Positions 59,111-64,000 of a stretch of DNA of 64,000 bases are shown piece after piece. Source of the stretch: Bacteroidales bacterium. Lineage in GTDB: Bacteria; Bacteroidota; Bacteroidia; Bacteroidales; VadinHA17. A program made the translations under genes and the position numbers. Below the pieces are notes generated by a model. The model searched no databases, had not been told where the DNA came from, and worked only from the letters and a program-made list of their open reading frames with translations. Each line of letters begins with the position of its first letter. Within the stretch, counting starts at the first letter, position 1. Where the stretch lies: contig JAFGXX010000219.1 of the NCBI GenBank assembly GCA_016936435.1, positions 306 to 64,305 of the forward strand. The letters run 5' to 3'.

Positions 59111-59992
59111 ATGAAAGCATACGTATTCCCCGGGCAGGGGGCACAGTTTCCCGGAATGGGCAAAGACCTTTATGAAAATTTTCCGGTTGCAAAGGAGTTG
59201 TTCGAGAAAGCAAATTCCATTCTGGGTTTCAGGATCACTGACCTGATGTTCACAGGAACGGCTGAAGACCTGAAACAGACACGGGTGACCCAGCCAGCAA
59301 TATTTCTTCATTCGACAGTTATGGCAGCCGTGCTTGGCGACACATTCAGACCCGACATGGTTGCAGGTCATTCCCTTGGTGAATTTTCGGCTCTCGTGGC
59401 AAATAAAACCCTTTTATTTGAAGACGGGCTAAAACTGGTAGCGAAAAGAGCTGAAGCCATGCAGAAAGCATGTGAACTGAATCCATCCTCGATGGCTGCT
59501 ATAATAGGTGCCGACGATAAACTTGTTGAGGATGTATGTGCCTCGGTTGCCGCTGTCGTGGTACCCGCTAATTATAACAGTCCGGGACAAATCGTTATTT
59601 CAGGGTCAGATGAAGGTGTAGATCAGGTAATTGCAGAACTTAAGAACAGGAACGTAAGAAAAGCCATTAAACTGGCTGTCGGCGGAGCCTTTCATTCACC
59701 CTTTATGGAACCTGCACGTACTGAACTGGCTGAAGCCATTAATGTTTCGCCTTTCGGCAAACCTGTATGTCCGGTCTATCAGAATGTGACAGCTTCACCA
59801 TCAACCGACCCGCCTGCTATCAAAGCCAATCTGATCGCCCAGCTCACATCGCCCGTTCTCTGGACACAAACCGTGCATAAAATGATTGCCGACGGGGCTG
59901 CCTCTTTCACCGAAGTGGGACCCGGATCGGTACTGCAGGGACTAATAAAAAAGATCAACCCCGATGTAGCTACCGGGGGAGTGGTGTTCTGA
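59111..59992 (+). CDS. fabD: Malonyl-CoA:ACP transacylase
   Basis: YVFPGQGAQFPGMGKDL, GHSLGEFSALV and GAFHSPFM. Confidence 0.9.
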   Translation: MKAYVFPGQGAQFPGMGKDLYENFPVAKELFEKANSILGFRITDLMFTGTAEDLKQTRVTQPAIFLHSTVMAAVLGDTFRPDMVAGHSLGEFSALVANKTLLFEDGLKLVAKRAEAMQKACELNPSSMAAIIGADDKLVEDVCASVAAVVVPANYNSPGQIVISGSDEGVDQVIAELKNRNVRKAIKLAVGGAFHSPFMEPARTELAEAINVSPFGKPVCPVYQNVTASPSTDPPAIKANLIAQLTSPVLWTQTVHKMIADGAASFTEVGPGSVLQGLIKKINPDVATGGVVF

Positions 59993-60095: not shown

Positions 60096-63068
60096 TCATA
60101 CAGGTTTCATAATTGCACCCATATGTCTCTTCCCGTCTACCATTATCTCAAGAGGCTTCTCAAACCTTACATGCCGCAGAATGCTGTCTTCATATACCGC
60201 TTCCAGACCGTTCAGGTATTCGACATCATAATATCCTTCATCGATAAAAGGATTTATTGTGAAATAGCCGACCCTGAAAGAGGTCAGGTTCTGAAAAAAA
60301 TGGGTTCCCTGGCTGGGATCGATACGATAATTCTTTAGCCCCGACTCAATTATTATCCTTGCAGCCGATATCTGAGACCATTTTACCGGAATACCGAGCC
60401 ACGGATCTGTAGAGCCCCACCTGCCGGGTCCGATGAGTACATACCCTGCATTTTTGTTAACAAACTGTGTATTAAGGTTCTCGACCAAAGCTGCGGTTTC
60501 AGTGTTCTGAGAGGCATTGAAGGATTCAGGTTTTATATATACAAGATCGTGAATACCCTTGAACAAACCGTGCCCGAGAGCCGACAAAGAAAAGATTATC
60601 GTTTTCTCCACAGCTAAGTTTTCGAGATTTATATTGTATGTCTCATCCGAATGGACGATAGGCCTGATCTGGAGGAAATTGAAGATCTTAGGTGTCCCGA
60701 CGGGAGTCTCCAGGTTAACTGCAAATTCAATCTCGATGGGATTATTCATCTCCCTCTGTCCCAGTTCCATGAGGGTTGTGAGAATTTCGGCCAGAGGAAA
60801 GGAGTTGTGCTGGAGTATTCCTGCAAAAGTAATAACCTTCTTTCCACTGTGCAGGATGCCATCGCGTAGAACATTGTTTACCCGGTCATAGGTAGATGCC
60901 AGTTGCCTCATCGCGTAATCATTACCTGCCTCATTTATATCTATGTGGAGGATGTTCACGCCATCGTCAGTGGAAGGGACAAAGCTCTCAATGTTAAGAT
61001 CGAGGGCCCTGAATTCTTTCTGTGAATTGCGGACAGCAGTCTCAGGTGAAGAAAGCTGTAATATCTTTTTCGGATGTTTAGGACAAAAGCGGAGTGAAAG
61101 ACCACCTTCGACAATCAGTTTACCCAGACCGAAAGCCACATTGGCGATACCGTCTTCTGCCTTTTCCGAACCTATGGGATAGTAATTTATCGACCTCGCC
61201 ACACCCGAAATTGTCGGATAGAAAATATCTCCATGTCTGCTACCGCAAATTTCCTGTAGAATGATGCCCATTTTTTCTTCATCGATCACATTTGCGGTAG
61301 CCGTCATGTATGCTTTACTTGCCTTGTAGTAAACCGATGCATATACCTCTTTTATGGCATCCGACATTGCTTTGACCATCTGTTTGTTGTCGGCAAGACG
61401 CGGTATCATGTATGTTGAATATACACCGGCAAAGGGCTGATAATGTGAATCCTCAAGTTTGCTCGACGACCTCACCGCTATAGGATGATTTCTGGACACA
61501 GCCAGGAAGGCGTAGAAATCCTGATAAACTCTCCCCGGAAGTTCGGCATTGATGAACCTGTTCAGAATCTCCTCGTCGGGAAGATCCGATAATGCCACCG
61601 AATAGAGATTGTTGTGGTCCATAAACTCATCGAAGATATCGGTGCTCAGTACTACTGTCCGCGGAATGGTGATCAGGACATCAGGGAAGCGGTTGAAAAG
61701 CTTGTGATTCTTAATGATCCTGTTTATGAAAGCAAGCCCCCTGGCTTTTCCACCTATGGAACCTTCTCCGATACGTGAAAAGATCTGGTACTCGTCGAAG
61801 CTTGTCTTGTCGAATTTTGCTATTACCCCTCGGCCCTTACCCAGACGAAATGAAGAAATTGCAACATAAAGAAACCGTCTCATTTCATCCATCGTGTCAA
61901 AATCATCTTTTCTGACATATTTAAACATCTGTGCAACAGGAAAAAGAGCCCTTGCATTCAGCCATTTCGAGAAATGATTGCGGGTTGCATGATATTCAAG
62001 TGTGTTGTCGGGAATTGTAAGAAGCTTCTGTTGAAGACTTTGCAGATCGGTGGCAATGGCTATGGGTTCAAGAGTCTCGGGATTTCTGAAGACAAAAGGT
62101 CCAAACGCAAGATTCTGAATGATAAAGTTGCGCAACTCCAGGGAAAGTGATTTGGAATATTTATGAATAAATCCTGCCCCCATGCTTTCCGCTTTCTCCT
62201 TGTGTCCGAGATTTGACGATTGTAACAGAAAAGGAACTTTGTCATCATCAGCCATTACCACTTCGCATAACCTGAACCCGGCATTCTCATCAAGGATAGC
62301 GTCTCTCTTATAGCTTATATCGGAGATAACTCCCAGAACATTGTATTTGAATTTATTATAAAGACCAACAGCGTCGTTGAAGTTATTTGCCAGCAGGATC
62401 TTAGGCCGGCCTCTCATTTTAAGCATCCGCTGATGTTCATTAAGAGCTTCTCTTTGAAAATCAAGCGACTGAAGAAGAACTATCTTGTAGATATTGGGAA
62501 GATATGATGAAATATAGCGAATGGAATTCTCTACCAGTATAATGGCCTGAACACCTACATTTTCAATATCATGCTCCGAATTCATCTTATCCTCTAGAAG
62601 CTTTATTATTGCCAGGATGAGAGATGCATCGCCAAGCCAGCAGAATACATAGTCTATTGCGCTCAGATCCTCACCTTCAAGCCGCAACGACACTTCGCGT
62701 GAAAAATATGTTAGGACAACGATAGGAATCCGTTCATGTTTCTCCTTGATCTTTTTAGCCATGGCAAACACATCCGTCCCCTTCAGTGAGAGCATCGAAA
62801 TAACCAGGTCTACGTTCCCCTCACTAAGTATAGTGAAAGCATCGTCGGCATTATCGGTCTGGATGAAAATCGGAGGATACCTGAGGTTGAGGGATACATA
62901 TTCATTAAAGATCTGCTCATCAATTCTTCCATCCTCTTCAAGCATGTAATTGTCGTAATTACTGCAAATCAGAAGCACCCTGTGAATCCGCTTCTGCATT
63001 AAAAGATTGAAGGAGGTATCAGTGAAATCGTATTTCTGAAGATCAACAATTCCGTCAATAATTGTCAT
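60096..63068 (-). CDS. Multidomain protein: two receiver-like domains, a PPDK_N-type ATP-grasp (PEP/pyruvate-binding) domain, and an uncharacterised C-terminal module
   Basis: ATP-grasp blocks GSIGGKARGLAFIN, VRSSSKLEDSHYQPFAGVYSTY, MGIILQEICG and IEIEFAV...FLQIRP. N-terminal CheY-like segments (RVLLICSNYD...DLVISML...IVVLT, and a second one). No GG.TSHAA swivel motif. The C-terminal YVLIGPGRWGSTDPWLGIPV and GTHFFQNLTS are shared with the upstream paralog. Confidence 0.7.
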   Translation of the reverse strand: MTIIDGIVDLQKYDFTDTSFNLLMQKRIHRVLLICSNYDNYMLEEDGRIDEQIFNEYVSLNLRYPPIFIQTDNADDAFTILSEGNVDLVISMLSLKGTDVFAMAKKIKEKHERIPIVVLTYFSREVSLRLEGEDLSAIDYVFCWLGDASLILAIIKLLEDKMNSEHDIENVGVQAIILVENSIRYISSYLPNIYKIVLLQSLDFQREALNEHQRMLKMRGRPKILLANNFNDAVGLYNKFKYNVLGVISDISYKRDAILDENAGFRLCEVVMADDDKVPFLLQSSNLGHKEKAESMGAGFIHKYSKSLSLELRNFIIQNLAFGPFVFRNPETLEPIAIATDLQSLQQKLLTIPDNTLEYHATRNHFSKWLNARALFPVAQMFKYVRKDDFDTMDEMRRFLYVAISSFRLGKGRGVIAKFDKTSFDEYQIFSRIGEGSIGGKARGLAFINRIIKNHKLFNRFPDVLITIPRTVVLSTDIFDEFMDHNNLYSVALSDLPDEEILNRFINAELPGRVYQDFYAFLAVSRNHPIAVRSSSKLEDSHYQPFAGVYSTYMIPRLADNKQMVKAMSDAIKEVYASVYYKASKAYMTATANVIDEEKMGIILQEICGSRHGDIFYPTISGVARSINYYPIGSEKAEDGIANVAFGLGKLIVEGGLSLRFCPKHPKKILQLSSPETAVRNSQKEFRALDLNIESFVPSTDDGVNILHIDINEAGNDYAMRQLASTYDRVNNVLRDGILHSGKKVITFAGILQHNSFPLAEILTTLMELGQREMNNPIEIEFAVNLETPVGTPKIFNFLQIRPIVHSDETYNINLENLAVEKTIIFSLSALGHGLFKGIHDLVYIKPESFNASQNTETAALVENLNTQFVNKNAGYVLIGPGRWGSTDPWLGIPVKWSQISAARIIIESGLKNYRIDPSQGTHFFQNLTSFRVGYFTINPFIDEGYYDVEYLNGLEAVYEDSILRHVRFEKPLEIMVDGKRHMGAIMKPV

Positions 63069-64000
63069 GTCTGTTCATTATTTTCAGTCATTGATATAAC
63101 TGCATATCCCTTTTTGCCATCCATCATAATAATGAGAGGCCTGTTAAACCTTACATGGCTGAAAAAACTCCCTTTCTTTATAAGCTCCTGACATCTTATC
63201 TTTTCCCAGCTCACACTGCCCTTGTGTGAAGCGGTGTTTACTGAAAAATACCCCACATTCATTGAGGTAACGTTATGGAAAAAGTGGGAGCCCAGGGAAG
63301 CATCGAGATGATAACCCGGCAGGTCTGTCTCAACAATGATCCTGGCATTTGATATCTGGGGCCAGGCTACTGGAATACCTATGAACCTGTCGCGTGAGCC
63401 CCATCTTCCGGGTCCTATAAGTATGTACTTCCGCCCTTCACTGATCATGACATCATTTATTTTTTCAATTTCCGATGCCATTTCGACTGTTTTCTGGTTA
63501 TCAAAATCATCAGGGTCGACATAGATCATGTCGGAAATAGTGTCTACAATTCCGTTACCCATACTTCTGGGTGACTCAAGGATAACCTGTTCCATCTCCA
63601 GTGAGGCAGGATCAAATGTATATACAGCACCCCTTCCCACAAGAGGTTTCATCTGCAGAAGGTAGAATGATGCATTACCTTCTTCATCCCTGTTCAGGTC
63701 GACTGCAAACTCAATCTCTGAGGGGTTGCCGGTAGCTTCTGTCACTATGTCAAGAATTGTTTTAAGAGTTGAAGCCAGTGGGATATAGTTATATTTAAGT
63801 ATATCAGCAAAATTTATGACCCTCGGACCCGGAGCATCAAGACCCGGAGTAATGATATCATTGTCAATGTTAAGCACCGATGCACTGTGTTTTATAGTCC
63901 CATGCCTTTCAGCTGTCGCCATATCGAGTTTTGCCAGACCTGCATTTTCACCTTCAAGAAGGTTCAGGTTCTTCTTTTTCATGTCAACGGCATAAAAATG
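63065..64000 (-). CDS. Paralog of the preceding gene (end of the ATP-grasp domain plus the same C-terminal module), 5' end outside the window
   Basis: The frame stays open upstream of the ATG at 63982 up to nt 64000 (HFYAVD-MKKK). The HFYAVDM region aligns with EFRALDL inside the 990-aa paralog, so the gene very probably continues beyond the window. Shared blocks: EIEFAVDL, YLLQMKP, YILIGPGRWGSRDRFIGIPV and GSHFFHNVTS. It overlaps the downstream gene by 4 nt (ATGA). Confidence 0.65.
   Translation of the reverse strand, partial: HFYAVDMKKKNLNLLEGENAGLAKLDMATAERHGTIKHSASVLNIDNDIITPGLDAPGPRVINFADILKYNYIPLASTLKTILDIVTEATGNPSEIEFAVDLNRDEEGNASFYLLQMKPLVGRGAVYTFDPASLEMEQVILESPRSMGNGIVDTISDMIYVDPDDFDNQKTVEMASEIEKINDVMISEGRKYILIGPGRWGSRDRFIGIPVAWPQISNARIIVETDLPGYHLDASLGSHFFHNVTSMNVGYFSVNTASHKGSVSWEKIRCQELIKKGSFFSHVRFNRPLIIMMDGKKGYAVISMTENNEQT

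Follow-up and report, generated by a model that had tools for sequence, protein, structure and literature searches.

A tandem pair of receiver-linked ATP-grasp proteins with a structurally unmatched C-terminal domain in Bacteroidales

Two adjacent minus-strand genes, here called A and B, lie at the end of a 64,000-nucleotide stretch of DNA from a Bacteroidales bacterium (assembly GCA_016936435.1, contig JAFGXX010000219.1, positions 306 to 64,305 of the forward strand; the whole stretch analysed is called the window). Their products are paralogs belonging to a large uncharacterised branch of the phosphoenolpyruvate (PEP) synthase/PPDK/rifampin phosphotransferase (RPH) ATP-grasp superfamily, and in both a family-specific domain of approximately 176 residues occupies the place taken by the swivel-histidine and substrate domains in related enzymes. 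Both paralogs are under purifying selection, with their key residues kept. As a tentative but favoured reading, drawn from sequence and gene context, A and B may be receiver-gated ATP-dependent phosphotransferases with a new acceptor module, linked to the 2-oxoglutarate/glutamate node.

The coupled gene pair and its ATP-grasp domains

Gene B (60096-63068, minus strand) encodes a protein of 990 residues in which the open reading frame, Pfam matches and structural models revealed a pseudo-receiver (REC1), a receiver (REC2), a linker, a PPDK_N-type ATP-grasp domain and a C-terminal tail. Of gene A, the window holds only the 3' part (63065-64000, minus strand), encoding residues 843-1153 of a 1153-residue paralog cut by the window edge. 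The frame upstream of B was open as far as the window end at nt 64000, and an exact-protein look-up found the identical B protein on two longer contigs, L001 and L002 (GCA_016926325.1), on both of which A is complete at 1153 residues (L001:4742-8203). At 63065-63068 the minus-strand sequence is acATGAca; the stop codon of A and the start codon of B thus share 4 nt, an ATGA overlap of the kind associated with translational coupling. An initial annotation, made by reading the letters of the window, had described both this overlap and the truncation of the upstream gene, and was right on both counts. An alignment of A with B over 982 positions shows 36% identity, and the two proteins share one domain order (pseudo-receiver, receiver, helical linker, PPDK_N ATP-grasp, C-terminal tail). 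A carries in addition an N-terminal extension of approximately 170 residues with the motifs KELSCINQ and AWQYPEF (L001:4742-5260, beyond the window), which gave no Pfam or PDB sequence match and may serve as a sensor domain peculiar to A.

Conservation of the tandem arrangement, proposed as a check in the initial annotation, was found within the window's Bacteroidales clade, where 46 of the 47 A-B junctions measured at most 17 nt, 12 of the 47 being 4-nt overlaps, and did not extend to distant homologs. The A-B tandem is limited to this clade; homologs 38-60% identical are nearly all single genes, and those 55-60% identical to B are solitary, so pairing is not a property of the family as a whole.

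The ATP-grasp domain of B (residues 437-810; 60639-61760, minus strand) was identified by Pfam (PF01326, E 1.3e-35 in B and 3.4e-36 in full-length A) and by Foldseek, and all four motifs from which it had first been recognised by eye are present. The nucleotide-site motifs are GGK441 (within GGKARGL), R533-S-S-S, E539-D540, E779-I-E781 (within EIEFAV) and LQ800-I-R802-P, and we take these to correspond to K22, R92, D321, E323, Q335 and R337 of PPDK. Across 41 diverse full-length homologs, GGK441, R533, E539/D540, E779/E781, Q800 and R802 were invariant or at least 90% conserved, and by sequence B appears to possess the phosphate-binding Lys/Arg and the Mg2+-binding acidic pair of the ATP-grasp superfamily. 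Only the last part of PPDK_N is visible in the truncated A fragment (63596-64000, minus strand; EIEFAV at 63701-63718, LQMKP at 63644-63658). The ATP-site residues are also retained in 44 A and 70 B orthologs, except that the A residue equivalent to R802 was Lys in all 44 A orthologs. An AlphaFold2 (AF2) model of residues 315-990, spanning linker, ATP-grasp and tail (pLDDT 81.5, pTM 0.70), matched RPH (5hv1), PEP synthase (2ols), HpeI (9goj) and PPDK (1kbl/1dik) with a Foldseek probability of 1.00, the best being RPH 5hv1 (E 3.8e-12, ~390 aligned columns). All these structural matches cover the ATP-grasp domain only.

Beyond the ATP-grasp domain the resemblance to these enzymes ended. The PEP-utilizers swivel domain (PF00391) found no match in A or B even at E<=10, and the GGxTSH motif occurred in neither protein and in none of 79 metagenome homologs. 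Nor was the PEP-utilizers_C TIM barrel (PF02896) matched in A or B, and B ends ~187 residues past the ATP-grasp domain. This agrees with the initial annotation, which had found neither a swivel histidine nor a PEP-binding barrel in either protein. Of the three domains that make up a PEP synthase or PPDK, PPDK_N was therefore present and the swivel domain and TIM barrel were not. Scores against the NCBIfam PEP-synthase models were at most 53 bits against cut-offs of 598-1063; PigC/RedH and Rph models also fell far under their cut-offs (NF041857, 19 bits against 999), as did the top NCBIfam matches, which were RPH-like 'PRK06241' models. When compared with the RPH-like architecture (ATP-grasp, Rph_4th/RIF-BD and swivel His), the ATP-grasp domain alone aligned, and neither protein has the form of a split-dikinase ATP-grasp subunit, a stand-alone chain of ~330-400 residues with an adjacent swivel subunit. 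Judged by domain content, the annotated PEP-synthase function is excluded.

The C-terminal domain and the receivers

The initial annotation was also right that a distinct tail follows the ATP-grasp domain, but it had put the length at about 230 residues; as PPDK_N reaches ~810, the tail runs from about residue 804/815 to 990, a length of ~176-187 residues. The tail domain of B (residues 815-990; 60099-60626, minus strand) had no Pfam or PDB sequence match and was delimited as an AF2 domain. It is 41% identical to the tail domain of A (residues 978-1153; 63068-63595, minus strand), and the blocks GPGRWGS, GIPV.W.QIS.ARII.E, G[ST]HFF.N and HVRF..PL.IM.DGK are common to both, much as had been noted by eye. 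In B, GPGRWGS (residues 880-886; 60411-60431, minus strand) forms a GxGxxG-like loop after a beta-strand, and SQGTHFFQN (residues 919-927; 60288-60314, minus strand) contains the invariant His923 (H923) in a low-confidence loop. The corresponding segments of A are GPGRWGS at 63395-63415 and SLGSHFFHN at 63272-63298.

Conservation was assessed in 142 full-length tails, less than 50% identical to one another, from the best 150 matches. R883, G885, G892, E908, G921 and H923 were invariant, and G832, G834, N866, G880, G882, W884, D888, P894, S919, F924, F925, N927 and Y935 were conserved in at least 95% of the tails (G880, G882 and W884 in at least 97%; S919, F924, F925 and N927 in at least 98%). 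GPGRWGS and G[ST]HFF, the two motifs singled out earlier for such a check, were thus essentially invariant. All 44 A orthologs keep every one of these tail residues, with a fixed Thr-to-Ser change just before the His. On these alignments the conservation of the tail motifs is far beyond chance, and the polar set R883, D888, E908, S919, H923 and N927 is the pattern that would be expected of a catalytic or phosphate-binding site.

No relative of the tail was recognised. Pfam gave no match to the B tail (as a single sequence, or with 28 diverse members at E<=10), and PDB sequences gave none to a single tail sequence or to a profile; a likeness to the Longin domain (VAMP7 profile E 0.017; Pfam in 1 of 28 tails) was judged to be due to chance. 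The stand-alone AF2 model, built on a 120-sequence alignment, was confident (pLDDT 90, pTM 0.88). In it a small beta-meander at the N-terminus is followed by a long helix and a beta/alpha core, and a further beta-meander forms the C-terminal end; Foldseek found nothing at E<=1e-3 in PDB or BFVD for this model. In the 315-990 model, residues 918-930, including the H923 segment, had pLDDT below 50. Weak Foldseek matches (E 0.09-0.9, TM 0.11-0.34) were to the PA domain (7f2d/4tjv), LD-carboxypeptidase (1zl0/5z01) and the CPS small subunit (1jdb_C), with no phosphohistidine domain among the matches listed; the latter two proteins presumably belong to the swivelling beta/beta/alpha fold class. The PA domain has this swivelling beta/beta/alpha fold (PMC4000134), and a kinship of the tail to the class would be a lead only. 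The tail was also considered as a degenerate PEP-utiliser swivel domain, to which some likeness can be seen by eye ('G.G...G..V' at its start, 'LIGPGRWGS..LGIPV' in its middle and 'DG..G.I' at its end), and this was rejected as unsupported: when 143 tails were compared by hhalign with a profile of canonical swivel domains, built from four sequences only, the probability was 0.5% and just 'LGIP' aligned. The profile and structure comparisons suggested by the initial annotation thus tied the tail confidently neither to the PEP-utiliser mobile domain nor to another characterised family.

REC1 of B (residues ~29-160; 62589-62984, minus strand) was recognised by Pfam and by alignment to RR468/CheY. 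The Response_reg match, at residues 70-142, lies just above the Pfam cut-off (E 3.2e-07, 30.9 bits against 30.2) and reached E 2e-08 when only the N-terminal third of the protein was scanned. REC1 has the signature of the receiver fold but lacks the acidic pair, and Met92 aligns with the phospho-acceptor Asp of RR468/CheY. Because all 44 A orthologs have Met at this position, and all 70 B orthologs either Met or Trp, REC1 is regarded as a pseudo-receiver. REC2 (residues ~172-315; 62124-62555, minus strand) is a divergent receiver found by profile search of the PDB, in which 19 of 20 matches were receivers with marginal E values (best 0.0017); a PDB search with REC2 as a single sequence was uninformative, and the equivalent region of A matched Response_reg at E 8.9e-4, under the Pfam cut-off. 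REC2 has an insertion of ~35-40 residues after helix 1, and keeps E180, D250 (codon at 62319-62321), S284 and K303. All 44 A orthologs and at least 69 of the 70 B orthologs retain this E/D/S/K set, which is also conserved family-wide, and REC2 alone has the response-regulator residues (acidic, Asp, Ser/Thr and Lys). Both CheY-like segments of the initial annotation, the first of them without its acidic pair, were thus recovered, and the term 'receiver-gated' used there is reasonable given the canonical set in REC2 of both paralogs. No conserved kinase gene was found near the family gene at the loci inspected, which included the metagenome conserved-neighbour clusters.

Between receivers and ATP-grasp lies the linker (residues ~320-430; 61779-62111, minus strand), a beta-hairpin and helical bundle resembling DUF5752, with the motif YH..RNHFSKWL. 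Pfam matched DUF5752 in the A linker (25.6 bits, cut-off 23) and in the homologs P0135 and P0219, with no such match in the B linker. Complete-looking forms of 565-625 residues lack receivers, which suggests that the ATP-grasp domain and tail alone are the conserved core and that the receivers provide accessory input.

Family distribution and gene neighbourhoods

When 1.84 billion representative proteins were searched exhaustively with a tail profile, at least 1,951 clusters (50% identity) were recovered at E<=1e-3, of which 515 were found at E<=1e-30; at 90% identity the family has more than 6,000 clusters. The tail followed PPDK_N in every long protein examined and, with four exceptions among the 142 conservation-set proteins, ended no more than 19 residues short of the C-terminus, the four exceptions being first modules of two-module proteins or having an extra C-terminal extension. 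Architectures included ATP-grasp and tail only (seven Met-starting representatives, 565-625 residues), the 990-residue form, the 1150-residue form, and fusions of 1520-1650 residues with two ATP-grasp plus tail units per chain (P0161, P0127 and P0148). The second tail of these fusions is more divergent and retains GPGRWGS and FGTHFFQ, and two of the three end in an additional Pol-beta-type nucleotidyltransferase domain; a NTP_transf_2 match in P0161, considered as a sign that the tail itself is a Pol-beta nucleotidyltransferase, proved to be this separate domain after the second tail copy. The two-module fusion echoes the tandem A and B genes.

Stand-alone tail proteins were considered and rejected, the short tail-only reading frames being frameshift fragments in metagenome-assembled genomes (MAGs) from long reads. 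Family genes at L086:3137-6576 and L087:3350-9795 were split by frameshifts into 3-5 consecutive reading frames, and such broken genes give rise to spurious 'tail-only' and 'PPDK_N-only' entries in public protein collections. Named hosts were Bacteroidales/Bacteroidota, Lutibacter, Fibrobacter and Chitinispirillaceae, and the metagenome homologs ranged from 31 to 72% GC. In 'Ca. Sulfidibacterium hydrothermale' (L083:728-3088) a Rph-like dikinase of 786 residues with PPDK_N, Rph_4th and PEP-utilizers domains lies ~7 kb from the family gene, so that canonical and tail-type PPDK_N proteins coexist in one genome. Source names for family members were limited to 'phosphoenolpyruvate synthase', 'PEP/pyruvate-binding domain-containing protein', 'CheY-like' and 'hypothetical', and literature searches found nothing on proteins combining receivers and PPDK_N, on DUF5752 or on 'PEP synthase' genes adjacent to glutamate dehydrogenase (GDH). 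Thousands of database entries under the name 'phosphoenolpyruvate synthase' are misannotated, and environmental Bacteroidales metabolic reconstructions that trust this name would wrongly infer a gluconeogenic step.

The strongest functional clue, which the initial annotation did not have, was recurrent adjacency to genes for GDH or 2-oxoacid oxidoreductase. In the window's clade the order MurI (glutamate racemase), 2-oxoacid:acceptor oxidoreductase alpha, beta, A, B and convergent FabD was found at ~56-60 GTDB loci, the oxidoreductase being of the 2-oxoacid:ferredoxin type (POR), a family which includes 2-oxoglutarate enzymes. In four Bacteroidales/Bacteroidota MAGs (L060, L065, L066 and L080) A was absent, and in three of these B follows the oxidoreductase beta gene by ~30 nt, which suggests co-transcription there. 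POR linkage as a family-wide trait was rejected, since it is restricted to the window's clade. A GC hairpin followed by a T-run (window 59959-59978, minus strand) lies 118 nt 3' of the B stop codon, within the 3' end of the convergent fabD; it resembles a terminator and may be that of B.

Outside this clade, a scan of metagenome contigs covered 80 diverse loci (L088-L167), almost only long forms and 38-60% identical to B, and a single recurrent neighbour was found, NADP-specific GDH (NF006929, 785 bits). Of the 55 loci whose upstream flank reached 1.6 kb or more, 29 carried it as an adjacent gene of the same orientation, and tblastn recovered it in 42 of all 80; in 19 loci it was the gene immediately upstream of the family gene, with both on one strand. 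The GDH-carrying loci ranged from 31 to 67% GC, and the family proteins with GDH directly upstream were 41-90% identical to one another (median 53%). In Lutibacter (L075, L077, L078 and L082) the family gene stands between two NADP-GDH paralogs that share its orientation, the intergenic gaps being ~105-120 nt, and the isolate Lutibacter sp. B1 carries these three genes as a discrete unit, GDH - family gene - GDH (L078:1847-7787). One Porphyromonadaceae MAG (L079) joins the two contexts, in the order POR-A-B-GDH. Downstream, an NfnA-like FAD/NAD-binding protein and a gltA/NfnB-like 'NADPH-dependent glutamate synthase' were found in 6-9 loci; an Nfn-type pair is also seen at L086:7545-9522 and adds an NADPH/ferredoxin element to the neighbourhood. 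GDH, 2-oxoacid oxidoreductase and Nfn-type neighbours all stand at or beside the 2-oxoglutarate/glutamate/NADPH node, and this recurrent association of the family with GDH, or with 2-oxoacid oxidoreductase and glutamate racemase, is new here. PADLOC gave no match to anti-phage defence, and Rfam gave no match to a riboswitch or other RNA near the operon in L001 or L078.

Possible mechanisms and comparison with known systems

In the mechanism which we tentatively favour, the tail would hold an acceptor to which the ATP-grasp domain transfers phosphate or pyrophosphate from ATP, with His923 as the likeliest phospho-carrier or catalytic residue. The kinase or ligase role put forward in the initial annotation, with this His as a candidate catalytic or phospho-acceptor residue, is plausible. 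All characterised PPDK_N enzymes pass the beta-phosphate of ATP via a His (PMC4844700, PMC12167813), and it is from this that the tail is proposed as the acceptor module with His923 in that role. Phosphorylation of D250 in REC2 by some histidine kinase would gate the activity, and REC1, with Met at its acceptor position, may be a structural or dimerisation adaptor. In the clade with both genes, A and B would be made together through their tight coupling and probably form a heteromer, while the single copy found elsewhere is presumably a homomer. Gene neighbourhoods point to a physiological target at the 2-oxoglutarate/glutamate node (GDH or 2-oxoacid:ferredoxin oxidoreductase), on or with whose enzymes the protein may act as a regulatory kinase or autokinase in the manner of VadK of Mycobacterium tuberculosis, or else it may act on a metabolite of the node. 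The family has dropped the swivelling His domain through which all characterised PEP-synthase-type ATP-grasp enzymes move phosphate, and has fixed a structurally unmatched domain with an invariant His of its own; if this domain accepts phosphate, the same mechanistic task would have been solved a second time. The two-component wiring together with the GDH and 2-oxoacid:ferredoxin oxidoreductase neighbours makes these proteins candidate regulators of the carbon-nitrogen junction in Bacteroidota. In Bacteroidota, post-translational control of the 2-oxoglutarate/glutamate node by a kinase-type mechanism is not known to us, and literature searches for such control found none.

Several observations weigh against this mechanism. 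Neither sequence, profile nor fold comparison detected any kinship of the tail to the canonical phosphohistidine domain, and so what speaks for a phospho-His role of H923 is only its invariance, its position and the resemblance of its local motif ([ST]-H, then two hydrophobic residues). The invariant polar residues would equally suit a ligand-binding or regulatory site. The fixed Arg-to-Lys change in the LQ.RP motif of A means that its ATP-grasp domain may differ in its working from that of B, and the heteromer is inferred from co-expression only. At L001:4672-4706 a terminator-like hairpin of 11 pairs with a T-run separates the oxidoreductase beta gene from A, so that in this genome A-B may be transcribed from a separate promoter within the T-rich 40 nt that precede it. 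GDH adjacency is absent in some homologs (L083-L085), and where it is present it could mean co-regulation and not direct action.

The first of the alternatives, which we consider unlikely, is a direct small-molecule kinase or ligase that places phosphate, or forms an acyl-phosphate, on a metabolite bound by the tail, such as glutamate, 2-oxoglutarate or a derivative; there would be no phospho-enzyme, and H923 would be a general base or binding residue. ATP-grasp enzymes generally activate carboxylates. The R/D/E/S/H/N set and the GxGxxG-like loop of the tail would suit a pocket for a small molecule or phosphate, and the neighbouring enzymes belong to a single metabolic node, but no metabolic step beside GDH lacks an enzyme and fusion to receivers is commoner in regulators than in pathway enzymes. 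The phospho-His carrier used by all characterised PPDK_N ATP-grasps (PMC4844700, PMC12167813) also counts against it.

A more far-reaching form of the phosphotransferase reading, and a rather unlikely one, would make the family an unrecognised signalling kinase system of Bacteroidota, Fibrobacterota and others, in which the ATP-grasp domain autophosphorylates the invariant His on a new fold and the phosphate then passes to GDH or 2-oxoacid:ferredoxin oxidoreductase, or to the protein's own Asp250. Were Asp250 the recipient, this would be a His-to-Asp phosphorelay powered by an ATP-grasp domain and not by a histidine-kinase catalytic domain; were it GDH or the oxidoreductase, it would be direct post-translational control of the 2-oxoglutarate/glutamate node.

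It seems distinctly unlikely that the proteins are non-catalytic sensors or scaffolds, reading ATP/AMP as an energy signal, binding a protein or ligand through the tail and acting allosterically on GDH or the oxidoreductase. Such a role would fit the lack of a recognisable acceptor domain and the adjacency of GDH as a binding partner, and VadK physically binds its target enzymes (PMC13400623). VadK does autophosphorylate, however, and the near-invariance over deep divergence of the catalytic set, including the metal-binding E779/E781 and Q800/R802, would be unusual for a pseudoenzyme.

We think it improbable that the family is the ATP-grasp half of a split dikinase (cf. HpeI, PpsB and CreI), with the tail docking a separate swivel-His/substrate subunit. 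Stand-alone PPDK_N subunits do exist, and HpeI was among the best structural matches (PMC12167813), but the known systems encode the His subunit next door. No swivel-His family was among the metagenome conserved-neighbour clusters, and the sole gene with a PEP-utilizers/swivel-His domain in the window and L001-L085 was the complete Rph-like enzyme of L083. That the database label is correct and A and B are PEP synthases is scarcely credible: the source names say so and the PPDK_N match is genuine, but the swivel domain, GGxTSH and PEP-utilizers_C are missing, NCBIfam scores are far too low, and RPH-family proteins are known to carry the same misannotation (PMC4844700).

Among known systems, PEP synthase and PPDK (2OLS, 1KBL/1DIK) have a homologous PPDK_N domain with like motifs (GGK, R-S-S, E-x-E, LQ-x-R), but also a phosphohistidine domain (GGxTSHAAI) and a TIM barrel, both lacking in the present family. 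RPH-Lm (5HV1/5FBS) likewise has its ATP-grasp domain N-terminal to the other catalytic parts and a key His near the C-terminus, and RPH, like the present family, is routinely misnamed PEP synthase (PMC4844700). In RPH a RIF-binding domain of 430 residues is followed by a C-terminal swivel domain with His825, neither of which occurs in the present family; this has instead a single 176-residue domain of unmatched fold, and N-terminal receivers which RPH lacks. PPDK_N ATP-grasp domains without a swivel domain in their own chain are known from HpeHI, PpsAB and CreHI (PMC12167813), where they are stand-alone subunits of ~330 residues encoded beside the swivel/substrate subunit, whereas in the present family the domain is fused to tail and receivers and no swivel partner was found nearby.

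The closest analogue for the possible mode of action is VadK (Rv1127c) of M. tuberculosis, a PPDK-derived regulatory autokinase of the methylcitrate cycle which interacts with the enzymes of that cycle (PMC13400623). VadK too has lost the pyruvate/PEP domain, but it keeps a canonical phosphohistidine domain (His422) and has neither receivers nor a domain like the tail. Tandem-receiver regulators of the PleD type similarly place one competent and one degenerate receiver before an enzymatic output, and a weak PleD-family NCBIfam match was seen (E 0.0025); in the present family the pseudo-receiver comes first, the output is ATP-grasp and not GGDEF, and REC2 has a large insertion. In Actinobacteria, PknG and GarA/OdhI provide phosphorylation control of GDH and 2-oxoglutarate-consuming enzymes. 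This is a possible functional analogy, suggested by gene neighbourhood only, the proteins themselves (a Hanks-type kinase and an FHA protein) being unrelated to A and B.

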